A stretch of DNA of 64,000 nucleotides, from the NCBI GenBank assembly GCA_030695905.1, contig JAUYOL010000001.1, positions 66,023-130,022 on the forward strand. The letters are read 5' to 3'. The position numbers and the translations under genes were made by a program. Of the stretch, positions 5,082 through 54,447 are shown one piece after another. How positions within the stretch are numbered: position 1 is the stretch's first letter; every line of letters starts with the position of its first letter. This DNA comes from Candidatus Omnitrophota bacterium. GTDB lineage: Bacteria; Omnitrophota; Gorgyraeia; 2-01-FULL-45-10. Below the pieces are notes generated by a model. The model was not told the origin of the DNA and searched no databases. It was given only the letters and a program-made list of their open reading frames with translations.

Positions 5082-7130
5082 TTATCTTTCTTTTTTTAGC
5101 ACACCGAGGAAAGCATCCACTATCTTTGGGTCGAATTGAGTGCCCGCGCCGCTTTTAATTATTTTTACCGCTTCTTTTTTTGGAAGCGCTTTGCGGTAGG
5201 GGCGGTCTGAAATTAGCGCCTGGTAGACGTCGGCTATCGCGACTATGCGCGCGCCTATAGGTATGGACTCCTTTCTTAGGCTGTGCGGATATCCTTTGCC
5301 GTTCCACCACTCATGATGGTGGAGAATGACAGGTATAATGTCGCGCAGGGAGTGTATCGGCCTTACAATATCAGCGCCTATCTGGGGGTGCTCTTTAATA
5401 ATTTCTCTTTCCTGTTTCGTTAGTTTCCCGGCCTTAAGAAGGATCTTTTCGGGTACGCCGATCTTCCCAAGGTCGTGCAGCACCGAAGCTTCTTTTATGA
5501 CTTCTATCTTATCTTTTGGCAGGCCAAGCGAATGGGCTATACCCGTAGCGTAGTGGATCGTTTTTTCCACATGCTCACCGGTATAACGGTCTTTTAATTC
5601 GATAGTTTTAGCGAAAGCAAATATAGCTTCTATTACGCTTTGATTCCCGCGGGCGGTAAGCTTTTTTATCTTATTCTTTAACACATCAACACCTGGTTCT
5701 TCCTGTGGCTGTGTGATATCTTTTTTTATTTCCAGATCCACATATGAATATACCCTGTCTCCACCGTCTTCTTTGGCCTTATTCAGTATCTGGTCAGCTA
5801 TGTCGATAAAGTCGATTCCGCAATCGATTCTTTTATCGATAGGGTATGAACTGACTGCCGCGCTTGCCTTGATCTTTACACTGTGTTTTTTATCACCAAA
5901 ACCATGCAAGCGTATCATGTCGAGTATTCTTTGGGCCAGGGTGAGCGCTTCATATTTTCCGGTACCTGGAGATATGATAATAAACTCCTCTCCGCCGAAC
6001 CTTATCACTATATCGTAAACGCGGACCTCTTTTTTTAATAACCTTGCGAACTGTTTTAATATTGTATCGCCGAACTGGTGCCCATAGACATCGTTTATCG
6101 ACTTGAAATAATCTATATCCATCATGATTACAGAAAGCTCCTGGGAGTGTCTTTTTGCGCGCTCAAGCTCCGACTTCATTGCGTCAACAAGATAGTGATG
6201 ATTGTATAGACCGGTATGAGAGTCTTTCAAGGCAAGATGTTTCAGGTTTTCATTTGCCTTCGAAAGCGCGCTGTTTAATTCCATTATCTTATTTTCCGAT
6301 TCTTTGCGCTCTGTAATATCGCGTGTTATCGCGAGCAGCTGATACTTGCCTCCTATGATAGCGCGCCTTAAGCTTACCTCTACCCAAAATGTCCTGCCTA
6401 CCTTATCTTTAACGAGCTGCTCGAAAAGCTGTGGTTGTCCGCGCCCTGCTTTATCATAACTATCCCATACATTCTTTAACATATGAGGGCTCTCTCCCGG
6501 AATGACGGCCTGCAGGTCGAGCCCAGCCATCTCTTCCCTGCGGTAACAAAAAAGCTCGCAAGCTCTTTCATTCGCGTCGATTATTTTATATGTTTTTATA
6601 TCCCTTATTATTATCGCGTCATTCGCTGACTCGAATATAGAATGGTAGCTCTCTTCCGATATTCTGCACGCGTTCTCCATCTCCTTGCGTTGCGTGATAT
6701 CATGGAATACGCCCTGCACCACTTCCTTGTTTTCTATTTCTGTAATAGAACAGCTTATAAGCACCGTCTTTATCTTTCCGGATTTTGTTACTATATCCGC
6801 TTCATCCACACCCATTTTATTAAAAGCCTGGCCGAAGAACATATCTTTGTAGCGCCCTGCTTCATCAGCGGGATGCAGCGTTGTCTGGTGCTGGCCTATA
6901 ATCCCATCCTTAGATCTCTCAAAAAGCTTTTCGGCAGCCTTGTTGCAGTTGATAATAATGCCTGTTTCAGGGTCGGCCCACATGATAGCGTCAAGGGCGT
7001 TCTCGAACGCGAGCCTGAACCTCTTTTCGTTTTCCTGCAATTCCTGGGTGCGGTCTCTTACCAGGTTTTCAAGATGCTCTCTGTAGCGTTTTAGCTCTTC
7101 ATTTTTTTGCTCATGTTCACTCGAGCACAT
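5082..7130 (-). CDS. PAS-PAS-GGDEF-HD-GYP c-di-GMP turnover protein
   Basis: GGDEF active site RFGGEEF. HD-GYP motifs HDLGKIGVP and HHHEWWNGKGYP. Two N-terminal PAS domains. Confidence 0.85.
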   Translation of the reverse strand: MCSSEHEQKNEELKRYREHLENLVRDRTQELQENEKRFRLAFENALDAIMWADPETGIIINCNKAAEKLFERSKDGIIGQHQTTLHPADEAGRYKDMFFGQAFNKMGVDEADIVTKSGKIKTVLISCSITEIENKEVVQGVFHDITQRKEMENACRISEESYHSIFESANDAIIIRDIKTYKIIDANERACELFCYRREEMAGLDLQAVIPGESPHMLKNVWDSYDKAGRGQPQLFEQLVKDKVGRTFWVEVSLRRAIIGGKYQLLAITRDITERKESENKIMELNSALSKANENLKHLALKDSHTGLYNHHYLVDAMKSELERAKRHSQELSVIMMDIDYFKSINDVYGHQFGDTILKQFARLLKKEVRVYDIVIRFGGEEFIIISPGTGKYEALTLAQRILDMIRLHGFGDKKHSVKIKASAAVSSYPIDKRIDCGIDFIDIADQILNKAKEDGGDRVYSYVDLEIKKDITQPQEEPGVDVLKNKIKKLTARGNQSVIEAIFAFAKTIELKDRYTGEHVEKTIHYATGIAHSLGLPKDKIEVIKEASVLHDLGKIGVPEKILLKAGKLTKQEREIIKEHPQIGADIVRPIHSLRDIIPVILHHHEWWNGKGYPHSLRKESIPIGARIVAIADVYQALISDRPYRKALPKKEAVKIIKSGAGTQFDPKIVDAFLGVLKKER

Positions 7131-7166: not shown

Positions 7167-7529
7167 TTATCTAATAAACATTCTTATTTTTTCGAGTAGA
7201 TCTGCCGGCTCAAAAGGCTTTAATATGTAGTCATCGGCGCCCATCTCTTTTATTCTTTCAGGGACACGGATGATACTTGCGGTAAATATTATAATAGGTA
7301 TGTGTTTAAAATGTGGATCGGACTTTAATTTTTTGCAAAGCACATCCCCCTGCATTTCGGGCAGAAGCAGGTCCAGCAGTATCAGATCCGGCATCTCTGT
7401 TTTCAGCAGTTTAAGAGTCTCCTCACTGCTCGTCGTCGATAATATGTCGTAGCCGGCGGCTTTTAGTCTCTCCTGGGCGAGGGTAAGAAGATCCGGTTCG
7501 TCCTCAACTATTAGTATTTTTTTTGCCAT
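7167..7529 (-). CDS. response regulator receiver protein (stand-alone REC)
   Basis: MAKKILIVEDE ... LLDLLLP ... K-P REC signature. Start trimmed to the internal ATG abutting the upstream kinase stop. Confidence 0.75.
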   Translation of the reverse strand: MAKKILIVEDEPDLLTLAQERLKAAGYDILSTTSSEETLKLLKTEMPDLILLDLLLPEMQGDVLCKKLKSDPHFKHIPIIIFTASIIRVPERIKEMGADDYILKPFEPADLLEKIRMFIR

Positions 7530-7530
7530 A

Positions 7531-9399
7531 TCATCTTCTCCGTTCTGTGATTGGTAAGACAAAATGTACGGTTGTTCCCTTGCCGAATTCTGACTCGGCC
7601 CAGATCTTTCCTTTATGTATTTCAATAATCTCTTTTGATATGGCAAGTCCTAACCCTGATCCGCCAACCTTTCTTTCCACTTGAGAAAACCGCTTGAATA
7701 GTTTGGGCATATCATCCTCTTTTATTCCACAGCCGGTATCGGTTACCGATACCTGGATGGAATTATCGCCCTTTATGGAAGCTATCGTTATACTGCCCCT
7801 TTTTGTATACTTTACAGCATTGCTGATGAGATTGTTCAGGACCTCTATAATCTTGTCTTTATCGAAATTGGCACGAGGCAACTTATTTTCAAGTTTGAGA
7901 TTAAATTTTAGCCTATTCTTGCTTACCAGGGAAAGCATTGCCAGATGGACCTCGCGGATGATGTCGTTAATATTGTTTTCCTCGAATTTAAGTTTCATCA
8001 TACCAGCGTCGAGCTTTTGGAAGTCCAGCACCTGATTGATTAATCTCGTAAGCCTGTCTATATTCCTTTTTGCTATATCAAGTATATCCTTTTTTTCCGT
8101 ATCTATAATGCCGGTCCTACTTTCGGTGACAAGAGAGAAAGCCTCCTTTATAGCGCTTAGCGGGGTTCTAAGCTCATGAGATACCATATTCATAAAGTCT
8201 TCTTTTGCCGTTATCGCCTGTTTGCGCTCGGTGATGTCACGCACTATAGAAAGAAGGCAGTACCTTCCTCCTATAATCGCCCGTTTTGCGTTGACTTCGA
8301 CCCAGAACTCCCTGCCGAATTTATCTTTAGTAAACCATTCAAAAATCTGTGGTATGCCGGAAGCCGCCTGTTCGTAAAACTGCCTGCATTTTTCAGCGGT
8401 ATATTGGCCAAAACTAATGTAAAAAGGCTCCAAATTTAACCCTATCATTTCCTCTTTAGGATAGCAAAAGATTTCACATGCTTTGCTGTTAACATTTATT
8501 ATGTGGTATGTTTTGATATCGCGAATAATAATTCCGTCATTCGCTGACTCGAATATAGAGTGGTAGCTCTCTTCCGATACCCTGCAAGCGTTCTCCATCT
8601 CCTTGCGCTGCGTAATATCGTGGAATACGCCCTGCATGACCCGTTTATTTTCTATCTCTGTCATAGAGCAGCTTATGAGCACTATTTTTATCTTTCCGGA
8701 TTTTGTCACTATAGTAGCTTCATCCACACCCATTTTGTTCAAAATTTGATTTTTAAACATTTCGGAATAACGTTCTTTTTCATTAGTAGGATGCAGAGTT
8801 GTTTGGTGACGGCCTATTAGTTCATCCTTAGATTTCTCAAAAAGCTTTTCGGCAGCCTTGTTGCAGTTGATAATAATGCCTGTTTCCGGGTCGGCCCACA
8901 GGATAGTGTCAAGGGCGTTCTCAAAAGCGAGCCGAAACTTTTTTTCACTTTCCTGCAGCGCTCGGGTACGATCACCCAGCAATTTTTCCAGATTTTGTTT
9001 ATATAAATTCGTCTCCGAGTCTTTTCTTATGCGCTCACTTATGTCCTCCACCATCTCAACAGCGGCTGTAATATTACCATTGGCATCCTTCAGAGGAGAA
9101 GAGACGATTCTGTAATTGACTATACGGCCGCCCACAGGTGTTTGTGTTATCGCTTCATGCACAAGCCCGTCTTTTAGAGTCAGACAAGTAGGGCAGTAAG
9201 AACAGATGCTATCGCGGGGAGGATTATTAAATGTGCGATAGCATATAGGTTTTTTTGCGACATCTATATAGGGGAACCACTGCCTCATCTTTGTGTTAAG
9301 CGCAAGTATCTGCATATCTGGGCTTATTAGTGCAATGCCTATATCTATGCTATCAACCATGCCCCTGCATATCTCATCAGTTAATCTGAATGTTTCCAT
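7531..9399 (-). CDS. PAS-domain sensor histidine kinase
   Basis: H-box SHELRTPL. HATPase_c with a GSGLGLAISK G2 box. Three PAS repeats. Confidence 0.85.
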   Translation of the reverse strand: METFRLTDEICRGMVDSIDIGIALISPDMQILALNTKMRQWFPYIDVAKKPICYRTFNNPPRDSICSYCPTCLTLKDGLVHEAITQTPVGGRIVNYRIVSSPLKDANGNITAAVEMVEDISERIRKDSETNLYKQNLEKLLGDRTRALQESEKKFRLAFENALDTILWADPETGIIINCNKAAEKLFEKSKDELIGRHQTTLHPTNEKERYSEMFKNQILNKMGVDEATIVTKSGKIKIVLISCSMTEIENKRVMQGVFHDITQRKEMENACRVSEESYHSIFESANDGIIIRDIKTYHIINVNSKACEIFCYPKEEMIGLNLEPFYISFGQYTAEKCRQFYEQAASGIPQIFEWFTKDKFGREFWVEVNAKRAIIGGRYCLLSIVRDITERKQAITAKEDFMNMVSHELRTPLSAIKEAFSLVTESRTGIIDTEKKDILDIAKRNIDRLTRLINQVLDFQKLDAGMMKLKFEENNINDIIREVHLAMLSLVSKNRLKFNLKLENKLPRANFDKDKIIEVLNNLISNAVKYTKRGSITIASIKGDNSIQVSVTDTGCGIKEDDMPKLFKRFSQVERKVGGSGLGLAISKEIIEIHKGKIWAESEFGKGTTVHFVLPITERRR

Positions 9400-9409
9400 A
9401 TTTAGCTAC

Positions 9410-9784
9410 TTAAGCCTTCCCGCTCTCTCTATCTATTATCTCTACTATGCTATCAAGCAGAGAATCCATGCTTGCCGATTTTTCCAGATATTCATCCGCG
9501 CCGGAATATTTGGCTATGGGAGCCGATATTGCCGGATAGCCGGTGAGAAACACGGTTTTTGTATCAAGCTTATTCGTTTTAACATACTTAGCGAGCTCCA
9601 AGCCCGTAAGCCCCGGCATATTAAAGTCCACAAATATTATGTCGTAGTGGTTACTTTTTATCATATCCAATGCCCTGTCTCCGTCATAAGCAAAATCCAC
9701 GCGATGGCCTTTTCCCGTTAAAAATTTCTTTATTATACCTATGAGATCCTTATCGTCATCGGCGATAAGTATATTCTTTTCCAT
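9410..9784 (-). CDS. response regulator receiver protein (CheY-like)
   Basis: ILIADDD ... DIIFVDFNMPGLTG ... REC fold, 124 aa. Confidence 0.8.
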   Translation of the reverse strand: MEKNILIADDDKDLIGIIKKFLTGKGHRVDFAYDGDRALDMIKSNHYDIIFVDFNMPGLTGLELAKYVKTNKLDTKTVFLTGYPAISAPIAKYSGADEYLEKSASMDSLLDSIVEIIDRESGKA

Positions 9785-9799
9785 ATTGGTACCTCCAAT

Positions 9800-10255
9800 C
9801 TATTTGGGCGGTATTTGGTTTAATAAGAGCCAATATAGCCCCAGCTCCGAGACCGCCGTGACAAACTTATCAAACTCTACGGGCTTGGGTATGTAGCTAT
9901 TTGCCCCATATTTATAGCTTTTAACCAGGTCCTCCTCCTCTTTTGAAGAGGTCAGTATTACAACGGGTATTGATTTGGTTTTATCGTCCGTCTTTATTTT
10001 GCGCAATACTTCCAGGCCGTCCACCTTTGGAAGCTTTATATCGAGCAGTATTACTTTCGGCCTGATGCCGTTATTGCCATTCTTTTTTGCCGCATATGCG
10101 CCTTCGTGGAAGATAAAGTCGAGGGCCTCAGCGCCGTCCTTTACCACATAAACTTTATTGGCAAGCCTTCGCTTTTCTAAAACCCTCAAGATAAGCTCGA
10201 TATCGTCAGGATTATCCTCAACCAAAAGAATGTCAGCCGCTTCTTTTATTCCCAT
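9800..10255 (-). CDS. response regulator receiver protein
   Basis: [10 protein letters not shown] ... [12 protein letters not shown] ... YIPKP REC signature. Start set at the internal Met, overlapping the upstream kinase by 23 nt. Confidence 0.75.
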
Positions 10256-25336: not shown

Positions 25337-25543
25337 GTGAAGAATATGTGGTACTTTATTATAATCATATCGGTGCTTTATGTGGGTTTCTTTATTTGGG
25401 CTACCATAGATTACAGGAAGAAAGAAAAAGTCCAGGAAAAAGATACGGATAAGTCTGTCTGCCGTTCCGAAAACTCTCTGGATGAGTATGGCAAGAAGAT
25501 GAATACCTCGGAAACCCCCGAATGCCCGGAGCCGGAAGAATGA
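25337..25543 (+). CDS. small membrane protein
   Basis: Single TM helix followed by an acidic tail. Confidence 0.3.
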   Translation: MKNMWYFIIIISVLYVGFFIWATIDYRKKEKVQEKDTDKSVCRSENSLDEYGKKMNTSETPECPEPEE

Positions 25544-25971
25544 CGAAGATCAGGCATTTAGCGCATAAAAAAGGTTTTACCCTTGTAGAAGTGCTGATAG
25601 CGGCTCTTATAATGGGAATAGGCCTTATTAGTGTTGGGGCCGCTATCTATGAACAATTCTCTTTTGTTGGCCAAATAAGGGAGAGGGTCATCGCGGACAT
25701 GGCCGCCCAGGAAGAGATCGAATATATTAGAGGGCTGCCGTTCAATACCATTATAAATTCTAATACAGCTTTCCCTAATCCTTCAAGCTTCAGTTCATTA
25801 TTAAACAATAACAATCCAAGCGTTGCCGTAGCGGTAGACAATTACCTAAGTGATCCTTCAAATAATATTCGCAGGGTTTCCGTTACTGTAAGCTGGGATT
25901 CCTTTATGGGCAGTAGATTACAAACAAACCTCGTTACTTTAGTAACGCGTAACGGTATTGACAGACAATGA
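25540..25971 (+). CDS. prepilin-type N-terminal cleavage/methylation domain pseudopilin
   Basis: KKGFTLVEVLIAALIMGIG class III signal. Confidence 0.7.
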   Translation: MTKIRHLAHKKGFTLVEVLIAALIMGIGLISVGAAIYEQFSFVGQIRERVIADMAAQEEIEYIRGLPFNTIINSNTAFPNPSSFSSLLNNNNPSVAVAVDNYLSDPSNNIRRVSVTVSWDSFMGSRLQTNLVTLVTRNGIDRQ

Positions 25972-26618
25972 TGTATATGGACCGGAAGAATAAAGGTTTC
26001 ACGATAGCCGAGATGCAGATAGCGTTGTTCGTGGCTACTATCATACTGATAGCCGCAATCTCTCTTTATATATTTTATTGGCGAGGATTTGTTACGGGCA
26101 ATACCGTTTTGGATATCTATTCTAATTCAAGGATGGCGATGGGGTGGATAGCAAAAGATGTCAGATCGGCCGCGGAGATATTGCCGCAATCCACAATTGT
26201 GTCGGGGCGCACAACTTCCGATAGCTGTATTGTTCTACAGGTACCGTCTATTGCCAATACCGGCGGCAGCGCCAGTGTTATACCGTCACAATTTGATGAA
26301 ATTGTTTATATAGTGCAAGACGGCAACCTGCAGCGTATCGTAACTCCGTACACAGCAGGGCTTACACCAAGCGTCAGGCCGCCTGAAAACCGCGCCGTAG
26401 CTCGTTATTGTAATTTGGTAACCTTTTACAAAGTAGATACCTCCACCGGTACATGGACGCCTTTATCAGGCTTTTTGGGCAGCGGCGGGAATTTATCCAC
26501 CATTAACAATATGGGCGTATCTTTGCCAATAAATGAGACTACCCTCTCTTTAAGCGGTGTAGAGACACAAAACTATTCGATAACCCCGACCATGGTATTA
26601 AGATTGCGGAATAAATAG
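25968..26618 (+). CDS. pilin-like minor pseudopilin
   Basis: KGFTIAEMQIALFV prepilin signal. Confidence 0.65.
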   Translation: MMYMDRKNKGFTIAEMQIALFVATIILIAAISLYIFYWRGFVTGNTVLDIYSNSRMAMGWIAKDVRSAAEILPQSTIVSGRTTSDSCIVLQVPSIANTGGSASVIPSQFDEIVYIVQDGNLQRIVTPYTAGLTPSVRPPENRAVARYCNLVTFYKVDTSTGTWTPLSGFLGSGGNLSTINNMGVSLPINETTLSLSGVETQNYSITPTMVLRLRNK

Positions 26619-26640
26619 GCGAGAAAGAGGTATAAAGTTT

Positions 26641-27867
26641 ATGCGTAGTAAAAAAAATAAAGGCGTTGTGCTGATTACGACCATTTTGATCGCGTCTATC
26701 CTAATAATAATCGCTATACCGTATATATCAAGAGTCGCTTCGGAATATAGGCTGATGTCAAAAATGTATAAATCAACTCTTGCTCTTAATTTAGCCGAAG
26801 CGGGTATAGAGCGGGCCATCTGGGAAATATGTTATAACAATAGCGATTTTTCGGGATGGGTGTATTCAAACGAGGCCAATATTCAAACATGGGCTATTTC
26901 AAACGCAGCGTTTAAAAACACAGCCGGCAAAACAGTCGGTTATTATGATCTTGCAGTTTCGCTTCCCGTAGGGACAACAACGCGGACAATTGTGTCCACA
27001 GCTTATGTGCCGGGTAAAAGTTCTCCGGACGCGACAAAAAAGATCACGGTCAATTATGCCGGGGGCCAGTATCATTTTACGAACGCGATTGCAGCCGCCG
27101 GTTCTAATCCAAGTATTACGGTAAGCGGCAATGTAATAGTGGATAGTTATGATTCTTCGGTCGGGCCTTATGGCAACCCGAATCAGACTAACACCAGGCA
27201 GGGTAATATACAAACCAACGGCCCCATAAACCTGACCGGTAACGCATATATATACGGTAATGCGAACCCCGGGCCAAGCTATCCATTCTCGGGCAATCCT
27301 CCGGTGTCCGGTTCTTATGCAACTTTGTCAGCTCCTATCAGTGTTAATCCCATACCTGCCGCGACTGTTAACGCCGCGCGAACGACTAATAATAACAGCA
27401 ATATTACCGTTACAAGCGATGGAAACACAACGGCCTATGCCGGCGGGGATGTTCTTAGCGTAAGCAGTAACGATATTTTGACACTCGCGGGCGGCACATA
27501 CTATTTTACTTCGATGAGTGTGTCCGGTAACGCCCAGATCAGCGTCAGCGGATCATCTATAATATACGTGGATGGCGGCAACGTATCAGTATCCGGCAAC
27601 GGGATTGTTAACAGTGGCACGCCGTTAAATCTGGCATTATATTCTACAGGCAATAATGTTACACTGTCCGGCAATTCGGCATATATCGGGACGGTATATG
27701 CGCCCGATGCTACTGTGCGGGTAAGCGGTAATGACAACTTTTATGGAGCTATTGTTTGCGGCAGCAGCGTTGATACAGGTAACGCGTCCATTCATTTTGA
27801 TTTAGCGCTGATAAACGCGCCTCAAGTCGTCGATAATGATAGAATTATTTCCTGGCTCGAAGAGTAG
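26641..27867 (+). CDS. PilX-like minor pilin with repetitive (VSGN) beta-rich C-terminus
   Basis: N-terminal hydrophobic prepilin-like helix. Repeated SGN/VSG motifs. Confidence 0.5.
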   Translation: MRSKKNKGVVLITTILIASILIIIAIPYISRVASEYRLMSKMYKSTLALNLAEAGIERAIWEICYNNSDFSGWVYSNEANIQTWAISNAAFKNTAGKTVGYYDLAVSLPVGTTTRTIVSTAYVPGKSSPDATKKITVNYAGGQYHFTNAIAAAGSNPSITVSGNVIVDSYDSSVGPYGNPNQTNTRQGNIQTNGPINLTGNAYIYGNANPGPSYPFSGNPPVSGSYATLSAPISVNPIPAATVNAARTTNNNSNITVTSDGNTTAYAGGDVLSVSSNDILTLAGGTYYFTSMSVSGNAQISVSGSSIIYVDGGNVSVSGNGIVNSGTPLNLALYSTGNNVTLSGNSAYIGTVYAPDATVRVSGNDNFYGAIVCGSSVDTGNASIHFDLALINAPQVVDNDRIISWLEE

Positions 27868-27875
27868 ACGCCCTA

Positions 27876-27940
27876 TCCTATAAGCACCAAACCTCTCCCG
27901 GCGTTCTTACCACTCGATATAAGCAACTATCTCCGCTAAA
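27876..27940 (+). pseudogene. remnant 3' end of an excisionase-like gene (copy 1 of direct repeat)
   Basis: ~85% identical to 31349-31415. Translates in frame to YPISTKPLPAFLPLDISNYLR*, against YPISIKPLPVFSPLDISSHVR* in the intact gene 31182..31415. Confidence 0.5.
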
Positions 27941-28024
27941 AATCGTTGTAAGTTTATACTACAATCGTCGTAATGGTTTTACCTCTTAATGCGAGGTGAT
28001 CCCTAATCAATTCATGGAAATGTC

Positions 28025-28078
28025 CAGTGATAGGAAATGTCCACTAAACAGAGGACATTTAGATGCAGTGGACATTTA
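28025..28078. promoter_or_regulatory. nested palindromic operator-like sites (AAATGTCCA / TGGACATTT)
   Basis: aaatgtccag ... aaatgtccac-taaacag-aggacattt ... tggacattt. Related to the TGTTCAC-taaacag-GTGAACA motif at 31444. Confidence 0.45.
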
Positions 28079-28169
28079 ATACAACCTATCTGATCTATAC
28101 CATCGGACAGTTGTTCTATTTCATAGAACAGGCAGCATTTCCCTCTTTAAGAAAAACCTTGACATCAAT

Positions 28170-28215
28170 GTTCACTAATGGTATATTGTTCAGTAATTAG
28201 TGAACATTAAAAAGG
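28170..28215. promoter_or_regulatory. inverted repeats TGTTCAC...GTGAACA immediately upstream of abiEi-like gene (autorepressor operator candidate)
   Basis: tgttcactaat...attagtgaacatt followed by ggagtgaacatt, then the ATG. Confidence 0.45.
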
Positions 28216-28216
28216 A

Positions 28217-28912
28217 GTGAACATTATGAATGGCCATACAAATGGAACGAATATTTTTGCTGATAAGGCGACTTTCATTCTAAGGAAGATGCTGTCTAAT
28301 CCCGAAAAGAAGTGGGTTACGCGCGACTTTATGGGTGATGACGGGGTAAGCCTTGGAATGGCGCAGGGAGTGCTTGAAACGATGGCGAAGAAGGGCTACA
28401 TCGAGCGGGTCAAGCGCGGTCCCGATAGCTATGCGCTTCTTACGAATAAAAACGAACTCATTAGCGATTGGGTATCGGAGTATCGGTTTGACCTAAACGA
28501 AGTCGATGTTTATTATTCCCCTGATAAGAATATTCTATTGAAGCTTAAGGATTATCTGAAAGATAAACAATACGCGCTCACTCTTCATTCGGGCGCTAAC
28601 CTGATAACATCTTTTGTGGTTACAGATCAAATCGATCTGTATTTTAAGCCGGAAAACTGGAAGAAAGAGATCCTTGAGTTGCGACAACAGCTTGACTTAA
28701 AGGAGCTTGTAAGAGGCGGTAATGTCCGCATTATTTGCCCCGCGTACAAAAATAGCGTATTTTATGGGGCCCGGACAATAAAGGGATGCAAAGTTGTTTC
28801 CGGTCTACAGCTTTACCTTGATCTCTACAATTTTAAACCTCGTGGCCGCGAGCACGCGGAATATCTGAAAAAAGCATTGGAAGAGAAGGGGAAGAGCTTG
28901 TATGAATCTTGA
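28217..28912 (+). CDS. AbiEi-like wHTH antitoxin/transcriptional regulator
   Basis: N-terminal winged-helix. Overlaps the downstream nucleotidyltransferase gene by 11 nt. Upstream palindromes. Confidence 0.45.
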   Translation: MNIMNGHTNGTNIFADKATFILRKMLSNPEKKWVTRDFMGDDGVSLGMAQGVLETMAKKGYIERVKRGPDSYALLTNKNELISDWVSEYRFDLNEVDVYYSPDKNILLKLKDYLKDKQYALTLHSGANLITSFVVTDQIDLYFKPENWKKEILELRQQLDLKELVRGGNVRIICPAYKNSVFYGARTIKGCKVVSGLQLYLDLYNFKPRGREHAEYLKKALEEKGKSLYES

Positions 28913-29699
28913 GAAAATCGAAGCCGTATTTTTTAGTGTGCTTGAAGATATCAGCGGTTATCTTCCGGATCTCACGCTTGTCGGAGGATGGATGCCGTAC
29001 ATCTATTCAAATTTTCTTTGGAAAACATCCGTAAAAAATCCAGTAACCACGGTTGATATTGATTTTGGCGTGGATCAATCCGTTACCGGAGATTATTCAA
29101 AGACAATTTTTGAAACGCTTTCCCCTTTGGATTACAAAGAGCGTCATTTTAAGATGGATAGGCCGTTTCCTGTAGTGCTCTATAAAGAAAAGGTTCCGGT
29201 AGAGTTTATTACTTATCCTACCGTCGATATTAAAGCGATCGAGAAGATGGTGGGTCAGCAAATACAGATAAACAAGATCGATAAATTTGATTTTCTATTA
29301 AAACACCGGATCTCGATAAACGTTCAGGGTAAGCAAAAGAACAAAAGCTATCTTATCAATTGCCCAAGCCCATCGGCTTTTTTGTATCACAAGGGAGCGA
29401 CTTTTATTTATAGGGAGAACGAAGAGAAGCGGGCTAAGGATTTGTACTACATGTACTTCATCTTGCGGTACGCGCCTGACATCGATGCTATTTTGAAGGA
29501 AGTATCCCAGTACAGAGAAAAAGGGCATTTAATGGATGTGCCGGATAATATAAATAAGTTCTTCGAAAGAGTTTCAAGTCAAGGGTGCCTTTTGATAGAA
29601 GAGGAAAACGGCCCCGATGAATACATTCATGATGTTCGGCAGGACATATTTGATAGATTTAATGGGCTGAAGGAAGCATTAAAAGGGATCGGCAAGTGA
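28902..29699 (+). CDS. AbiEii-like nucleotidyltransferase (DUF1814-type toxin)
   Basis: Pol-beta NTase motif GGW ... TVDIDF (GSx9-13DxD). Confidence 0.5.
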   Translation: MNLEKIEAVFFSVLEDISGYLPDLTLVGGWMPYIYSNFLWKTSVKNPVTTVDIDFGVDQSVTGDYSKTIFETLSPLDYKERHFKMDRPFPVVLYKEKVPVEFITYPTVDIKAIEKMVGQQIQINKIDKFDFLLKHRISINVQGKQKNKSYLINCPSPSAFLYHKGATFIYRENEEKRAKDLYYMYFILRYAPDIDAILKEVSQYREKGHLMDVPDNINKFFERVSSQGCLLIEEENGPDEYIHDVRQDIFDRFNGLKEALKGIGK

Positions 29700-29824
29700 A
29701 GACCTACGCTGTCGGCGATATTCATGGCGCCTACAAGGCATTGATACAGTGTTTTAATACTAAGAAATACTGGCAGTCGGATTTGTCGCCGGAATTATAT
29801 GGCGGGACACTGGACAGATTATAA
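29696..29824 (+). pseudogene. 42-aa N-terminal fragment of an ApaH/PPP-like metallophosphatase
   Basis: GTG-initiated frame VKTYAVGDIHGAYKAL... carries the GDxHG motif, then stops after 42 codons. Confidence 0.3.
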
Positions 29825-30377
29825 GGGCCAAGTCGCGAGAGTTGATGATTTATTTTGGACCTCAAATTACATGAAAAAAGCCATAATCGTTAATGATAAA
29901 ATGCAGAAGAATTTCCGCTATTATCTGACAGAGCCTGCCGGTAAAAATTTCCACCCGGAATTTAAGCCGGAGCTCACCCCGAAAGAAATGCTGGAGATGG
30001 GAGTCTTTGGCGGGAAATACATGACCGATTGTGGAAAGGAATTTCCCGGATCATGGTACAAAAAAGCAAAGCTATGTCCCGAAAAACATGACGCAAACTT
30101 AAATTATTTCGGCATAAACGCGAGCCAGCCTCTTTCTATTTGGAGAAAGAAAGGATGGATATATCCGGATGATCCCCGCGGATGGTTCCAGTGGTATTGC
30201 CGTTATTATATGGGGCGGCGCCTTCCGGGAGAGGATGAGCGCCAGATAAAGAGATGGAAGGCGATAAAAAGACATATCGCTCAAGTTAAGAAAAACTGTA
30301 AGAAACAAGACGCCGCCTGCAGGCCTAGGCAACGGCAGGCAATCCTTCATTGGGCGTATGACAGTAGAACATTATAA
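29799..30377 (+). CDS. hypothetical protein (Trp/Tyr-rich conserved C-terminal GWFQWYCRYYMGRR)
   Basis: ORF only. Start uncertain. Confidence 0.4.
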   Translation: MAGHWTDYKGQVARVDDLFWTSNYMKKAIIVNDKMQKNFRYYLTEPAGKNFHPEFKPELTPKEMLEMGVFGGKYMTDCGKEFPGSWYKKAKLCPEKHDANLNYFGINASQPLSIWRKKGWIYPDDPRGWFQWYCRYYMGRRLPGEDERQIKRWKAIKRHIAQVKKNCKKQDAACRPRQRQAILHWAYDSRTL

Positions 30378-30550
30378 AGGAGCTAAAGGATATGAGTAAA
30401 AAAGACAAAAAGATCATTCTTATAGCCCAGCGCAACCCTCAGGCCGCCTTCAGCGCGTTGGACGGACCAGGAGCCGGGATGGGGCGAAGAAGATCACCTG
30501 ATGAATGAGTAGAGATTTTTGGGAAAATCTGCTATAATCTCGTGAAACAC

Positions 30551-30588
30551 GCTGGCGTAGCTCAGTTGGTAGAGCAGCGGTTTCGTAA
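30551..30588 (+). mobile_element. attL: 38-nt 5' fragment of tRNA-Thr(CGT), identical to 53618-53655, ending at anticodon loop
   Basis: gctggcgtagctcagttggtagagcagcggtttcgtaa is identical to the 5' part of the intact tRNA-Thr. It is preceded by a TATAAT (30531-30536) that fits the original tRNA promoter. Confidence 0.7.
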
Positions 30589-31181
30589 TGGAAACAGGGC
30601 AGTTTTCGTAACCCATTGATATTGTTGCAACTGCGTTATTTCACTGTGAGTTACGTCGCAATTCGAGTTGTAGCAATCTGGACGAATCTGTGTCATTCTG
30701 GCTATGTTTTTATCACAAATTTAGCACAACGACCCCGCGTCGTCATTGCGAGGCCCGAAGGGCCGAAGCAATCTCAATCGCGGTGTAATGATCGCAGTAG
30801 CCGACGTTTTAACGTCGGCTACGTCTGTATAGATGCATAGAAGTGGGGTTATTTGCGTCCACGTCGCGTCTGGCGGGCATGATCAGGTCAGTCTATGCTT
30901 ACGGGTCCTTGGAAGGGGGGTCGGGGTGCGGGTCGGGCGAGGCGCAGGTTGTCAGTGATTTCAGGTTTGAAAAAGCGTGTCCATGTCAATTCATCTAAGG
31001 ACACACTATCAGCATAGGTGATTTGGGACGTCCTTTCCGTCGGAGAATGGCAATATTTTGCGTCAAAAATTATCATCGCCGGGAGGGCCAAAACAGCCGT
31101 TTTTAGGGACATTTTGCTGATTTTTAAGAAATTTTTTATTACAAGTTTGTTATCATTTGTAACAAAGCGTATAGGTGATTT

Positions 31182-31415
31182 ATGGAAAACGGTTACTACG
31201 AGACATATACAGTGCGAGAGATCGCCAAGCAGTTTAAAGTCCATCCCTACACTGTCCGAAGACTGGCAAGGCGGAAGAAGATCCCCGCCTTTCGATTCGG
31301 CGGCCAGTGGAGATTTCATAAACTCGACATCGAGCGATGGGCAGCGTCCTACCCCATAAGTATCAAACCTCTGCCGGTGTTCTCACCACTCGATATAAGC
31401 AGCCATGTTCGCTAA
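31182..31415 (+). CDS. excisionase/AlpA-like HTH DNA-binding protein
   Basis: TVREIAKQFKVHPYTVRRLARRKKIPAFRFGGQWRF follows the excisionase-family HTH_17 pattern. Confidence 0.6.
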   Translation: MENGYYETYTVREIAKQFKVHPYTVRRLARRKKIPAFRFGGQWRFHKLDIERWAASYPISIKPLPVFSPLDISSHVR

Positions 31416-31443
31416 AAATAGATTAATGTTCACTCAGCCCTTA

Positions 31444-31468
31444 ATGTTCACTAAACAGTGAACATTAG
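31444..31468. promoter_or_regulatory. palindromic operator ATGTTCAC-taaacag-GTGAACAT
   Basis: Perfect 8-bp inverted repeat. Related to the palindromes at 28025-28078. Confidence 0.45.
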
Positions 31469-31634
31469 GGTGTGGGCGTCTTGTCGCAAAAACTGTATAC
31501 TTTTTGCGACATAAATTAAGGCCATGTCCCGCTATCTTTAATTCTGCATGAATGTTACATATAATGTAATAAAAACGACAGGAGATTTTCGTTGACTTAC
31601 CCTGTGATTCGTGCTATAAAGTGCAATAACAGCA

Positions 31635-31853
31635 ATGGAGGATAAAATGTCAAAGATAGGAGCCTCACACATGGATATCGTAAAAAAATTAGAGCTGTAT
31701 CGCTTGGAGAATAAGATTACCCAGCAGGCATTGGCTAAAGAGCTTGACGTAGCCTTTTCTACTGTCAGTAGGTGGTTTAACGGCAAGACAGTTCCCAGCA
31801 AAATTCAGCAGTATCATGTAGAAAAGTATCTGAGGAAGAAGGTGGGAGTATGA
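31635..31853 (+). CDS. XRE-family HTH regulator
   Basis: ITQQALAKELDVAFSTVSRWFNG HTH_3 motif. Confidence 0.7.
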   Translation: MEDKMSKIGASHMDIVKKLELYRLENKITQQALAKELDVAFSTVSRWFNGKTVPSKIQQYHVEKYLRKKVGV

Positions 31854-33205
31854 AATTCACAGAAAGCGAAATCGTAGAGCTCAAAACATCGACATCAGAG
31901 CTCAAAGAGGCGATCATTTCATTGGGGGCCATGTTGAACAAGCATGGCAAGGGCACAGTTTATTTCGGCATCGGTGATAATGGTGCCGTTTTGGGACAAC
32001 AGATCGGCAAATCAACCATAAAAGATGTTTCAAAAGCCATCAGTGATTGGATTGAACCCAAGGTTTATCCTGATATTCAGGCCAAGAAAATACAAGGCAA
32101 GGACTGTATTGTTGTTAAAGCCAGCGGACATGATGTCGTGTATTCGGCCCGCGGACGATACTATTTACGGATGGGAGAGGAAGATAAGAAACTTTCGGTT
32201 GATGAACTAAGGCATCTGGTTGAAAAGAAAAATAACTATGCCTATTCATGGGGTGCTGAGCTTTCTAATTTTTCACTATCAAAGGTTAGCGTTGCGACGG
32301 TTAAGAAGTTTGTTGAGAAAGGCCGCAAGGCCGGACGTATTGAATACGCTTATGATTCGGCGCATAACGTCCTTAATAAAATTCACCTACTCAAGGGTAA
32401 AAGATTGCTTAACGCGGGTCGGGCGCTATTTTGTGAAGACAGTGGTGTTGAAGTTCAAGCGGCTGTCTTTGCCGGTAAAGATAAAACGACATTCGTCGAT
32501 ATTCAGAGTTTTCGCGGGCCTCTTTTTAGTTTGATCGAACGGTGCGAAGTTTACGCCAAAGAACACATTAACTGGCGCGCTGATCTTTCCGGTAGCACAA
32601 GGGTGGAAATCCCGGAGGTTCCCGTCCGTGCTATGAAGGAAGCTATTATCAATTCCCTTTGCCACAGAGATTTTTATAATCCTAAAACGAACGAGATCGC
32701 TATTTATCGAGATAGGATCGAAATTTATAACCCCGGCCAGTTTCCTTTTGACCATGATCCGGACGAGTTCATCGCAGGTCATGGTAAAAGCTATCCCAGA
32801 AACCCACTGATTGCGGAAGCTTTTTATCTGGCTAAGGATATTGAGCGGTGGGGGTCAGGCTTGCGGCGTATCAAGGAAGAATGCGATGCCGCGGGTGTGA
32901 AGGTTGCCTTCGAGAAGGTATCTACCGGCTTTCAGGTGACGTTTTATCGGTCAGAAGCCGACACTACCCCTCAAAAGGGCGGAGAAACTGGGGAAAAAAC
33001 TAGGGTAGAAACTAGGGTAGAAACTAGGGTAGAAATAATCAAAATTATGAAAGAAAATCCTCGCGTTACAGTAGGAGATATTGCGAAGGCGACGGGATTG
33101 ACCATAAAAGGCGTTGAGTGGAACATCAAGGATCTTAAGCAGAAAGGCTTGATTAAGCGTATCGGACCTAATAAGGGCGGCCATTGGGAAGTGGTGACGC
33201 AATAA
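31850..33205 (+). CDS. AlbA_2 (Schlafen-like divergent AAA)/HATPase_c_4 protein with C-terminal wHTH
   Basis: N-terminal ESEIVELKTS...GKGTVYFGIGDNG pattern of the AlbA_2 domain. C-terminal HTH. Internal TRVE x3 repeat. Confidence 0.55.
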   Translation: MKFTESEIVELKTSTSELKEAIISLGAMLNKHGKGTVYFGIGDNGAVLGQQIGKSTIKDVSKAISDWIEPKVYPDIQAKKIQGKDCIVVKASGHDVVYSARGRYYLRMGEEDKKLSVDELRHLVEKKNNYAYSWGAELSNFSLSKVSVATVKKFVEKGRKAGRIEYAYDSAHNVLNKIHLLKGKRLLNAGRALFCEDSGVEVQAAVFAGKDKTTFVDIQSFRGPLFSLIERCEVYAKEHINWRADLSGSTRVEIPEVPVRAMKEAIINSLCHRDFYNPKTNEIAIYRDRIEIYNPGQFPFDHDPDEFIAGHGKSYPRNPLIAEAFYLAKDIERWGSGLRRIKEECDAAGVKVAFEKVSTGFQVTFYRSEADTTPQKGGETGEKTRVETRVETRVEIIKIMKENPRVTVGDIAKATGLTIKGVEWNIKDLKQKGLIKRIGPNKGGHWEVVTQ

Positions 33206-46768: not shown

Positions 46769-47056
46769 AATCACCCCCCCCAATCAACTTTTCTTATGCG
46801 CGCATTTATATACAGCGAACGATGCATAATAATTTAAATGTTTACGGGTCCTTGGAAGGCGGGTCGGGCGCGGCACAAATATTTATTAAAATAGAGACAG
46901 CGCCGTTTTTCAAAAATAAATAGTCGCTGGCCCTATTTTCAGTTAATGAAGTCTAACCAATGGGAATAGTGACCGGACGCTATTCGGACACCGGTAATTG
47001 CATGTTATATATTCACAAAGTCAGGTTAGTAGTGTATAATATAATTGAGGTGAAAA

Positions 47057-48693: not shown

Positions 48694-49066
48694 TTGCTAC
48701 TCCGTAGCAACGACCCCATTGTCAAAATAATTCGTTATTGTAAGATAGGTATAGAAACACATAGGTTGAATTTGTCCATTTTGTGGTAACGACCCTATTG
48801 CAAAAGAAACCTGCTGTTGTAGAATTGTGATGAGGCGGGGTTTTTCTTTTTTTATCCCCGACACTTTAACAGGAAAACCGGTATATACGTTGTAGGAGGG
48901 GGCATTTGAGCGAAAAAATCTGTATATACGTTTTGAGAAATAATTGCGGAAACCCCGACATTTTAGCAGGAAAACCGGAATATACGTTATAGGCGCGGAT
49001 GAAGAAAGTGAAAAAAGTGAAAATATTTCCGGCACTTTTGCATAAAACGTCGTATATAGCTAGTAG
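48694..49066. repeat. iteron-like direct repeats and GTATATAC palindromes upstream of replication gene
   Basis: Two ~41-bp direct repeats at 48856 and 48952. Four GTATATA(C/G) cores. 24-bp direct repeats at 48704 and 48784. Confidence 0.5.
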
Positions 49067-52512: not shown

Positions 52513-53616
52513 ATGATATATAAACGAGGCAAAACATGGTACATAGGTTACTCCGCTAACGGGCGGTTGATGCGGGAAGCGGTTGGTGAGTCGCGGAAAT
52601 TCGCCGAGCTTGTTCTTGGCAAGAAACGGGCCGAGGTCAGAGAGGGCCGTTTCCTCGATGTCAAGAAACACGCGAAGATCAAGTTTGAGGATTTCGCTAA
52701 GACATTTGTGGAGCTCCATTCAAAGGTTAATAAAAGGCCCAGAGTCGCCAAGAGAGACGAACAACTCATAAAACGCCTGTCCGGGCATTTCGCGGGCAAG
52801 TATCTGTACGAGATAACATCCAAGCAGATAGAAGAATATAAAAAAGTCCGTAAAGAGACTAAGCTCAAGGATAAGTTTATTGCCGCGGCGACCGTAAACA
52901 GAGAATTGGCATGTCTCAAGTGCATGTTTAATAAAGCGATCGAATGGGGCAAGGCAGATGAGAACCCTGTCCGTAAGGTGAAGTTATTTAAAGAGAATAA
53001 TAAACGCTTGAGGTTTCTTGAAAGAGAAGAGATACCAAAGTTCTTGGATAGCGCGGCCCCGCATCTAAAGCCGATCCTGATAGTCGCATTATTTACCGGT
53101 ATGCGTAAGTCGGAGATCCTGACTCTCCAATGGAAGAATATCAACTTTGGGCAGGGCATAATATATTTGCTCCACACTAAGAATGGCGAGCGCAGAGAAG
53201 TGCTGATGAACGATATCGTCAAAAAGACACTTATTGCCGTTCCTAAAAATCCCAGCAGCCCATATATATTCTGTCACGAGGACGGTAAGCCCTACCTGAA
53301 TGTCCGAAAATCTTTTGACGCAGTTTTGAAAAAATGTGATATAATTGACTTCAAATTCCACGATCTGAGGCACACATTCGCCTCGCACCTAGTTATGTTC
53401 GGTATAGACATAAAGACAGTGCAGGAGCTGATGGGCCATAAGTCCATTGAGATGACGCTCCGCTATTCGCATCTATCGCCGGATCACAAAAAGAGGGCCG
53501 TGGAGATCTTAGGAAATAGAATTAGCACAAATATAGCACAAACGCCTAAAACGGCAAATACAAGCGAGATAGGCGAATCGCCTAACTCGTTGAAAGAATT
53601 AGAGTTAGTGCATTAA
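52513..53616 (+). CDS. int: tyrosine-type site-specific integrase
   Basis: C-terminal catalytic motifs HDLRHTFAS and LMGHKSIEMTLRYSHL. Ends 2 nt before tRNA-Thr. Confidence 0.9.
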   Translation: MIYKRGKTWYIGYSANGRLMREAVGESRKFAELVLGKKRAEVREGRFLDVKKHAKIKFEDFAKTFVELHSKVNKRPRVAKRDEQLIKRLSGHFAGKYLYEITSKQIEEYKKVRKETKLKDKFIAAATVNRELACLKCMFNKAIEWGKADENPVRKVKLFKENNKRLRFLEREEIPKFLDSAAPHLKPILIVALFTGMRKSEILTLQWKNINFGQGIIYLLHTKNGERREVLMNDIVKKTLIAVPKNPSSPYIFCHEDGKPYLNVRKSFDAVLKKCDIIDFKFHDLRHTFASHLVMFGIDIKTVQELMGHKSIEMTLRYSHLSPDHKKRAVEILGNRISTNIAQTPKTANTSEIGESPNSLKELELVH

Positions 53617-53617
53617 T

Positions 53618-53693
53618 GCTGGCGTAGCTCAGTTGGTAGAGCAGCGGTTTCGTAAACCGCAGGTCGATGGTTCAACTCCATTCGCCAGCTCCA
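53618..53693 (+). tRNA. tRNA-Thr (anticodon CGT); attR within 5' half
   Basis: Cloverleaf with loop ttCGTaa, T-loop TTCAACT and CCA. Confidence 0.85.
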
Positions 53694-53706: not shown

Positions 53707-54447
53707 ATGAAGATAATATTTCTTGGCACAAACGGATGGTATGATACCGAAACAGGAAGCACGCCCTGTATTCTTATCGAAACGGTAGATCGGTTTATCG
53801 TTCTCGATGCGGGGTTTGGTTTTTATAAAGTGAAAAAATATGTAACTTCCAAAAAACCGGTTAGTCTTTTTATCAGCCATCTTCATTATGACCACCTGAT
53901 AGGACTACATACGCTGCCCATCTTTAAACTGGACCAGGGAATAGATATTTACGCGAACAAAATTATAATGAAAGGGCTGAAATCTTTTCTCAAGAGGCCG
54001 TATACCTCGCCGGTCCTTCTGCTTCCGACAAAAGTGCGGTTTCATACGATCACAGGAGATGCCGATTCTCCCGTAAAATTTGAAACGGCAAGAATGCGCC
54101 ATTCGGTTCCCTGCCATGGGTATAAATTTTATATAGAAGGCAAGACGGTTACTTATTGCACCGACACAGGATTATGTAATGGCCTGGAGAAGCTTGCCGG
54201 AGGCGCGGACTTGCTGATCACCGAATGCGCGATGGCGCCCGGAGATAAATCACCCAACATCTTCCATATAACCCCGGAGACCGCGGCGGAAGTTGCCGCG
54301 CGGGCCGGGGCAAAAAAATTGGCTCTGTGCCATTTCGATCCCGCAAAATATCCTACGATAGATAGCCGTAAGTGCGCACAGGACGTGGCCAAGGCTATTT
54401 TTAAAGAGACGGTTGCGACAAGCGATGGCATGGTTGTAGAAGTTTAA
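53707..54447 (+). CDS. MBL-fold metallo-hydrolase
   Basis: HLHYDH motif. Confidence 0.75.
   Translation: MKIIFLGTNGWYDTETGSTPCILIETVDRFIVLDAGFGFYKVKKYVTSKKPVSLFISHLHYDHLIGLHTLPIFKLDQGIDIYANKIIMKGLKSFLKRPYTSPVLLLPTKVRFHTITGDADSPVKFETARMRHSVPCHGYKFYIEGKTVTYCTDTGLCNGLEKLAGGADLLITECAMAPGDKSPNIFHITPETAAEVAARAGAKKLALCHFDPAKYPTIDSRKCAQDVAKAIFKETVATSDGMVVEV

Follow-up and report, generated by a model that had tools for sequence, protein, structure and literature searches.

An excisionase-gene remnant at the head of an AbiE-like cassette beside a tRNA-Thr island of an Omnitrophota genome, probably debris of a sister element

In a Candidatus Omnitrophota bacterium (assembly GCA_030695905.1, contig JAUYOL010000001.1, positions 66,023 to 130,022), the end of an excisionase-like gene occurs twice, once inside an island integrated at a tRNA-Thr(CGT) gene and once outside its left edge, which raises the question of where the outer copy came from. 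The 64,000-nt stretch, called the window below and numbered from its first letter, carries the intact gene (xis_B) within the resident island; the outer copy is a stub at the start of a segment, 27868-30520, that also holds an AbiE-like toxin-antitoxin cassette (Table 1). We conclude, with good confidence, that this is mobile-element debris, namely the dead tail of an xis gene from a sister element standing at the head of a live AbiE-like cassette. The original prediction saw here a duplicated module of excisionase 3' end plus palindromic operator, left by an older degraded island at the same hotspot or by modular recombination.

A repeat search of the window paired 27869-27954 with 31345-31430 over 86 ungapped nt at 80% identity, slightly more than the repeat first noticed (27876-27940 versus 31349-31415), and BLAST of the window against itself gave a 75-nt core at 84% identity (E=6e-16). 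Elsewhere in the window the 86-mer found 69 of 86 identities in its best ungapped match, whereas shuffled queries (n=200) averaged 40.8 and reached 45 at most, so that the similarity is well clear of the level at which it would lose significance. Codons 27868-27936 of copy 1 translate in frame as TPYPISTKPLPAFLPLDISNYLR, the counterpart of ASYPISIKPLPVFSPLDISSHVR, with which the protein encoded by 31182-31415 ends (31344-31415 in the DNA, copy 2 of the repeat). The excisionase-like C terminus had been recognized correctly as in frame; its extent is 23 codons and not 21 amino acids. In an alignment of 18 homologues the tail is a conserved feature of one subfamily of HTH_17 (helix-turn-helix) proteins, and the stub fits it. 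Both the start codon and the helix-turn-helix domain are absent from 27868-27939, only the tail beyond the domain being present; it is a gene fragment and not a member of the excisionase family. Its first base directly follows the TAG (27865-27867) of a DUF7305 pseudopilin-like gene, whose frame it shares.

Chance similarity, or an artefact of assembly or binning, might be suspected of so short a repeat, and its shortness is all that speaks for this. The chance of it is negligible given the self-BLAST and shuffling results and the homology of the stub to many xis tails. The junction between pseudopilin-like gene and stub is moreover identical base for base in an independent Logan assembly of Sequence Read Archive data (L001, SRR13727529), and therefore is not an assembly or binning artefact. 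The L001 assembly ends inside the first ATGTCCA half-site pair (window 28031), probably where repeated operator half-sites confused the assembler.

The comparison set consisted of 24 fetched loci (given here by their L numbers) and the window; a metagenome scan with xis_B returned eight loci with xis genes 81-99% identical. An intact counterpart of the truncated arrangement is found in L007 (Ga0268276_1001406). It has a 77-aa xis gene (7446-7679, GTG start), whose upstream region is homologous to window 31079-31181, and 3' of it 1.9 kb with 90.7% identity to window 27868-29757, comprising the same spacer, both operator sets, abiEi, the nucleotidyltransferase gene and the start of the metallophosphatase gene. 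The counterpart of window 27868 is L007 7608, a position within xis, which makes copy 1 the rest of such a gene, with everything to the left lost. The earlier view of copy 1 as the relic of a second, related xis gene is borne out by this intact order of xis, spacer, operators and abiE. Between the stub and the L007 xis tail there are 7 nonsynonymous and 3 synonymous changes, a ratio of nonsynonymous to synonymous substitution rates (dN/dS) of ~0.7.

Rather than core sequence, the stub is a piece of a sister element. Locus L023 (Ga0129287_10001707) is syntenic with the window on both flanks at 79-87% amino acid identity, with methyltransferase, HD, MshEN/PilZ, NUDIX and small open reading frame (ORF) genes to the left and tRNA-Thr, a metallo-beta-lactamase (MBL)-fold protein, a major facilitator superfamily (MFS) transporter and ATP synthase genes to the right. 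Only ~700 nt of non-coding DNA separates its small ORF from an uninterrupted tRNA-Thr gene, and it lacks both 25542-30548 (three pseudopilin-like genes, stub and cassette) and the island. Since the segment is missing in this syntenic relative, it is not conserved core, in keeping with its earlier description as a remnant. Its presence is variable: absent in L023, it is found in L007 and L014 with different junctions. At the left junction, the stop of the pseudopilin-like gene meets xis codon 55 in the window, and in L007 a truncated ArsP-like gene meets sequence that lies 105 nt 5' of xis. At the right junction there is a 192-aa ORF with a replaced -35 element in the window, and there are Phd/ParE-like genes with an intact -35 in L007. 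The three pseudopilin-like genes (window 25522-27867) are not at this position in L023 or L014 and are therefore also part of the variable region. A search of genome contigs with the pseudopilin-like protein gave only 31-32% identical matches in other phyla, uninformative on the empty site. L023 also carries an unrelated minus-strand five-gene cluster, including a DUF4900 protein, between its MFS gene and ATP synthase genes.

The cassette has fared differently from the stub. In comparisons with L007, L014 and L015, dN/dS is 0.05-0.11 for abiEi and 0.08-0.10 for the nucleotidyltransferase gene; set against ~0.7 for the stub, these values indicate purifying selection on the two cassette genes but not on the stub. 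The AbiE-like pair of the original prediction stands, as AbiEi_2 and NTP_transf_8 matches (Table 1), and the two genes overlap by 11 nt. The nucleotidyltransferase scores 18.6 bits against PF08843 (AbiEii), under the cut-off of 22.5, and on its family matches the pair at 28226-29699 is best called AbiE-like, not proven AbiE. AbiEi has >1000 homologues, mostly in Omnitrophota, many of them on database contigs of just 1-2 kb. A PDB sequence search with AbiEi returned only noise, and exact-sequence look-ups of xis_B and the nucleotidyltransferase found nothing on record.

The gene fragments said to follow the pair are one broken metallophosphatase gene and the uninterrupted 192-aa ORF. Relative to L007 and L014 the phosphatase gene has lost ~560 nt internally at 29757/29758: window 27868-29757 matches L007 7608-9498 and 29759-29805 matches L007 10061-10107, where the intact gene (9437-10126) encodes 229 aa. 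The family assignment is NinI/ApaH-like (PHROG 246, E=5e-42). All three genes, abiEi_2, NTP_transf_8 and a 229-237-aa phosphatase, occur together at six loci in five distinct genomic contexts (L007 at 7967-10126, L014, L015, L016, L018 and L019). As AbiEi has been reported to neutralise AbiEii via induced auto-phosphorylation (2026 preprint, 10.64898/2026.01.19.700257), the cassette-linked phosphatase could be a re-activator. The 192-aa ORF (29799-30377) had no match in Pfam, NCBIfam, PHROG or PADLOC and no homologue in any fetched locus.

Besides L007, seven loci in four distinct contexts carry the cassette (L014; L015; L016-L018; L019-L020), the contexts including positions beside ParDE genes, in a polysaccharide gene cluster and near a serine recombinase gene. 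O1, the operator set next to abiEi, is present in all seven, and xis and stub are absent from all. L014, which has 68-88% identity over genes matching window 18.3-23.2 kb, has its cassette after the methyltransferase gene and an unrelated 98-aa ORF, with homology to the window from 28088 only. The stub as an obligatory left end of the cassette was rejected on account of these seven stub-less cassettes, whose homology to the window starts at 28088-28152.

They bear equally on the proposal that the 86-nt block is itself a selected DNA or RNA element, such as a recombination site at the left edge of cargo, a promoter or a terminator. L005 has a second orphan xis tail (..PFSPSDIASRLR*) with a ATCGTTGTAA-N12-ATCGTTGTAA spacer at about 6042-6119, directly after the stop of a toxin-less AbiEi-like gene and ahead of a further AbiEi-like gene. 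This recurrence of stubs at module boundaries is the main argument for a recombination site, and the spacer repeat is highly conserved; spacers of the 27940-27977 type also stand 3' of xis in L006 and L007 and of the L005 stub (6088-6119). The spacer may include a weak promoter, TTGTAA-N17-CGTAAT. Against a selected element, there are just two orphan copies in the 24 loci and the window, the seven abiE cassettes do without the block, the stubs differ in length (23 codons in the window, ~14 in L005), and the stub seems to have changed free of constraint. No RNA family turned up in 27500-32000 in an Rfam search at permissive E-values, and a degenerate 37-nt pattern derived from the repeat had no match in viral contigs. 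We regard a functional block as very unlikely.

The palindromes that follow each copy of the repeat have a separate history. The window has 12 copies of the motif ATGTYCAC where 2.0 would be expected; 0 of 100 shuffles reached 12, and 8 of the 12 copies lie within three clusters (28037-28224 and 31426-31465). Aligned in register, the clusters show a half-site, N11, a half-site, N6, an inverted half-site, N10 and an inverted half-site. The palindromes reported earlier are real, although each had been transcribed one base off; corrected, they are ATGTCCAC-taaacag-AGGACAT and ATGTTCAC-taaaca-GTGAACAT. O2 is the TGTCCAC version, ~130 nt upstream of O1, with two half-sites rightward and two leftward at spacings of about N11/N6/N10, and is kept in L006, L007 and L016-L018. 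O1 lies on the only strong promoter of the region (TTGACA 28159-64, 17 nt, TG-TATATT 28182-87) and covers the -10 and the ribosome-binding site (RBS) of abiEi, the last half-site, 28217-24, overlapping the RBS.

A four-half-site set stands at 9 of 9 abiEi_2 promoters examined, 7 of them at loci without xis or stub, and in L016 both arms of the inner pair are altered symmetrically (TGTTCAG...CTGAACA). The set is absent from four xis loci with no trace of an abiEi_2 cassette (L005, L009, L010 and L011). The sites therefore track abiEi, not xis, and most likely are AbiEi operators; Xis is disfavoured as the palindrome binder on the same ground. The palindromes belong to the abiE cassette, and the idea of one duplicated module of xis end plus operator has to be given up. 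Neither are they a single site diverged in place, as had been supposed: L006 has TGTCCAC and TGTTCAC sets side by side 3' of xis (window 27872-28080 aligns with L006 1002-1210, and window 31423-31504 with L006 1206-1287), and the two palindromes are therefore paralogous sets.

The set behind xis_B (31426-31465) has the N11/N6 spacing of O1 and O2, lacks the fourth site, has no abiEi_2 gene downstream, and is conserved in L004, L006 and L008. A second palindrome after it, TGTCGCAAAAA-N8-TTTTTGCGACA, recurs 3' of xis genes and 5' of AbiEi-like genes, and in L005 and L011 is centred on the -10 of AbiEi-like genes 3' of xis; its positions elsewhere are L005 ~5395-5425, L011 ~4455-4490, L007 7727-7754 and L016 ~7870-7905. 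The 219-nt spacer between xis_B and the XRE gene contains operator-type sites of two modules now gone, which suggests that cargo was swapped more than once and the old 5' control region left behind each time.

Alternatively, the orphan ATGTTCAC set could be a working site through which AbiEi (28226) regulates xis_B read-through or the XRE/Schlafen operon. The window, L004, L006 and L008 agree at all 21 half-site bases and vary in the flanks, sequence and spacing equal those of O1, and cross-binding has been reported for Rv1044, an AbiEi-family protein that is not cognate to PabiEi (PMC7319586). At 90-94% background identity, however, this conservation is not significant (P about 0.03-0.1, a rough estimate), the set lacks its fourth half-site and does not overlap a predicted promoter, and L008 keeps it with no abiEi_2 within 10 kb. 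We consider a working site distinctly unlikely, and give a slightly slimmer chance to action of the stranded AbiEi on it in trans, as cross-talk or 'immunity' between related islands. If true, the relic of one island would regulate a cargo operon or xis read-through in the sister island beside it and, more broadly, operator stacks after xis would be working regulatory sites kept through cargo swaps.

How the segment reached its position depends on the island next to it. The resident island, 30551-53655, has the integrase, the 38-nt tRNA repeat and the absence from L023 that define a tRNA-integrated island, and its attachment-site (att) end attL is followed by a ~590-nt leader and then xis_B, a putative excisionase at the end opposite the integrase, which MAD1 and BldC-type helix-turn-helix regulators also match weakly. 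L004-L007 have the tRNA-Thr half and then the same leader, and L010 (~4443) and L011 (~3519) have that leader joined to another tRNA's 5' half (Lys, the anticodon being read as CTT). The cargo after xis is an XRE gene and a Schlafen/AlbA_2-HATPase_c_4-winged-helix-turn-helix protein in the window, L004 and L008, AbiEi-like genes in L005 and L011, and other genes in L009 and L010. As cargo differs 3' of xis genes that are 81-99% identical, these loci form an island family with a cargo slot directly after xis. In this family recombination falls in the anticodon loop and the element supplies the 5' tRNA half at its integrase end; no promoter of its own lies close to the rebuilt tRNA, and in the integrated state the native promoter is directed into the leader and xis.

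Upstream of tRNA-Thr, the window and L005, L006, L007, L021 and L023 have a promoter of good consensus, TTTACA-N17-TATAAT, whose 3' end carries aaaatctgctataat. Since it is complete in the island-free L021 and L023, it is the native tRNA promoter; aaaatctgctataat as an island-borne promoter, which would rescue tandem integration, was rejected because the same TTTACA-N17-TATAAT precedes the uninterrupted tRNA-Thr in L021 and L023. In the window its -35 is replaced (TAGAGA versus TTTACA) and the leader from promoter to tRNA is 12 nt, versus 67 nt in L021, so that the right-hand boundary of the older segment falls within the promoter.

In its strict form, the earlier idea of an element at the same hotspot holds that an older island of the same family occupied the same tRNA-Thr att site, that the newer one integrated beside it, and that the older then decayed to 2.7 kb. 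Stub and cassette do directly adjoin attL, a related arrangement lies beside a tRNA-Thr half-site in L007, and tRNA-Thr has been used repeatedly, with extra 5' tRNA fragments in L005 and L023. Because the integrase end carries the 5' tRNA half, however, the older island would be expected between the native promoter and the newer attL, and the native promoter instead sits between cassette and attL. We judge strict tandem integration unlikely, and the claim of an earlier element at this very site does not hold in that sense.

Several points also weigh against the segment as debris of a sister element. The stretch 25.5-30.5 kb, which tandem integration would likewise lead one to expect to hold relics, has no attL, leader, integrase (tblastn) or tRNA fragment (no tRNA 12-mer), and the xis stub is the only link of 27868-30520 to the island family. 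The position upstream of the native tRNA promoter is not the one that simple tandem integration at the att site predicts; the xis-abiE block is upstream of that promoter in both the window and L007. As the junctions of these two differ, they could be independent acquisitions rather than one old event. The seven cassettes without a stub show that the cassette moves by itself, and its link to xis could be recent. Binding of AbiEi to ATGTYCAC is a prediction from sequence, and the PADLOC and NCBIfam AbiE models (including TAA_AbiEi) matched neither the AbiEi-like nor the nucleotidyltransferase protein.

Even so, we hold to debris of a sister element. The region is highly plastic, and recombination that captured or rearranged the segment seems to us a better account of its route than integration at this att site; alternatively, the segment may have integrated separately into a site since lost and then been trimmed. 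Of the modular recombination first offered as an alternative, this much can be kept, that capture is no less likely than integration at that att site. A sister of the tRNA-Thr(CGT) island would have been the source of the second xis-like gene, of which the last 23 codons remain, and its cargo after xis would have been abiEi_2, nucleotidyltransferase and phosphatase genes in the order intact in L007. The window would then have lost everything left of xis codon 55, with the break falling exactly at the stop of the pseudopilin-like gene. The cassette would still work except for its phosphatase gene, transcribed from the predicted promoter at 28159-28187, which AbiEi would shut down via O1 over the -10 and RBS, O2 being a second set. 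The orphan three-site set and the TGTCGCAAAAA palindrome would be leftovers of earlier cargo modules of the resident island.

Table 1. Coordinates of features in and around the excisionase stub, the AbiE-like cassette and the resident tRNA-Thr island.
Feature	Position in window	Strand	Details
DUF7305 pseudopilin-like gene	26641-27867	+	TAG abuts stub
Dead xis/HTH_17 3' stub (copy 1)	27868-27939	+	23 codons (TPYPISTKPLPAFLPLDISNYLR), TAA stop 27937-27939
Conserved post-xis spacer	27940-27977	+	direct repeat ATCGTTGTAA-N12-ATCGTCGTAA (27942-27951, 27964-27973)
Distal operator set O2 (putative)	28020-28075	.	four ATGTCCAC-type half-sites: 28020-28027, 28037-44, 28051-58, 28068-75
abiEi promoter and operator set O1 (putative)	28159-28224	+	promoter scan 11/12 matches; ATGTTCAC-type half-sites 28168-75, 28186-93 (degenerate), 28200-07, 28217-24
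AbiEi_2-family antitoxin/repressor-like gene	28226-28912	+	228 aa; PF09952 36.3 bits, cut-off 21
Nucleotidyltransferase gene, presumed toxin	28902-29699	+	PF12281 NTP_transf_8 40.9 bits, cut-off 26.3
Metallophosphatase pseudogene (NinI/ApaH-like)	29696-29835 (end about)	+	third gene of cassette; 229 aa when intact
Uninterrupted 192-aa ORF	29799-30377	+	between cassette and tRNA promoter; Phd/ParE-like genes at this position in L007
Native tRNA-Thr promoter remnant, then attL	30510-30588	+	-10 TATAAT 30533-38 and part of spacer conserved
attL	30551-30588	+	38-nt 5' half of tRNA-Thr(CGT), 100% match to 53618-53655
xis_B, HTH_17 excisionase-like gene	31182-31415	+	77 aa; PF12728 58.0 bits (cut-off 27), TIGR01764 49.3 (cut-off 28.8)
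Orphan operator set after xis_B	31426-31465	.	three ATGTTCAC half-sites: 31426-33, 31444-51, 31458-65
Second orphan palindrome	31482-31511	.	TGTCGCAAAAA-N8-TTTTTGCGACA; no gene attached in window
Tyrosine integrase gene	52513-53616	+	PF00589 112 bits; stop 1 nt before tRNA-Thr(CGT)
attR repeat	53618-53655	+	first 38 nt of intact tRNA-Thr(CGT), to anticodon loop end
tRNA-Thr(CGT), intact	53618-53693	+	right end of island (52513-53693)
RNase Z-like gene	53707-54447		right of island
Predicted junctions of resident island			attB GCTGGCG...TTCGTAA joined to ACCGCAGG; circular junction 53617 to 30589

In L007 the cassette is followed by the native promoter and the tRNA-Thr 5' half at 11140. The extra 5' tRNA-Thr fragments measure 24 nt in L023 (4558-4729) and 14 nt in L005 (4377-4462), and 80-220-nt inserts lie between native promoter and tRNA at these positions and in L006 (~110-203); together they look like scars of nearly fully deleted elements at the same tRNA. 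About 50 nt upstream of the L023 tRNA fragment resembles sequence upstream of the L011 tRNA-Lys half. Within the resident island, a GC-rich 31-nt leader motif (TTACGGGTCCTTGGAAGGGGGGTCGGG...) occurs at 30895-30925 and 46838-46868 (93.5% identity). The motif is in the leader of every sister island, and in L008 (9717) and L009 (2024) leader homology starts exactly there, adjoining unrelated chromosomal genes. Possible roles for the motif are a site of recombination or of protein binding, or the edge of a module. A 41-nt direct repeat (90%, 48856-48896 and 48953-48993) lies in a non-coding stretch of the island before a 791-aa ORF, and the largest internal repeat of the window is a 496-nt direct repeat (81%, 6580-7075 and 8498-8993) unrelated to the stub.

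For the poorly studied Omnitrophota, these loci reveal islands of one family that target tRNA genes and hold their cargo in a fixed slot immediately 3' of xis, and they suggest that a toxin-antitoxin cassette can outlive the element that delivered it. They also bring to notice a conserved three-gene AbiE-like version that includes a phosphatase, and offer a testable putative operator motif, the four-site ATGTYCAC layout, for an abundant AbiEi_2 subfamily. Thinking on how such systems work is unchanged, as the segment is well-documented ordinary mobile-element debris and not a new kind of system. The main practical value lies in annotation: the 72-nt stub is not a gene, the island boundary is at 30551, and the abiE pair belongs to a variable region rather than to the core genome.

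The resident element resembles known tRNA islands with xis/AlpA-type HTH_17 genes in its tyrosine integrase, 38-nt repeat, xis-like gene at the opposite end and defence cargo, in its absence from a syntenic relative, and in the truncated copy of its own gene that adjoins it. It differs in that the relic lies upstream of the native tRNA promoter with no att or integrase trace, and in its anticodon-loop crossover, with the 5' half of the tRNA replaced and the integrase stop 1 nt from the tRNA; more usually it is the 3' half that is replaced. P2/P4-like elements carry cargo hotspots for defence between conserved genes. The islands here similarly have a backbone of leader, xis and integrase and a fixed slot in which unrelated defence or toxin-antitoxin modules replace one another, although no phage or satellite genes were identified in them, the host phylum is Omnitrophota, and replaced modules seem to leave their operators behind, stacking orphans in the spacer between xis and cargo.

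Compared with the AbiE systems of Streptococcus agalactiae (AbiEi/AbiEii) and Mycobacterium tuberculosis (Rv2827c/Rv2826c), the cassette, known here from sequence, differs in a toxin that is above cut-off for NTP_transf_8 (PF12281) and not for DUF1814/AbiEii, in its conserved third gene for a NinI/ApaH-like phosphatase, and in half-sites of 8 bp at N11/N6/N10 spacing instead of 23-bp repeats. It is alike in having a two-domain AbiEi-family gene that overlaps a nucleotidyltransferase gene, with inverted repeats over the promoter. S. agalactiae AbiEi represses its own operon via two inverted repeats in the promoter, and Rv2827c does so via four (PMC7319586; PMC3985639); the two pairs within ~200 nt in the window resemble the four-repeat Rv2827c promoter (PMC7319586).

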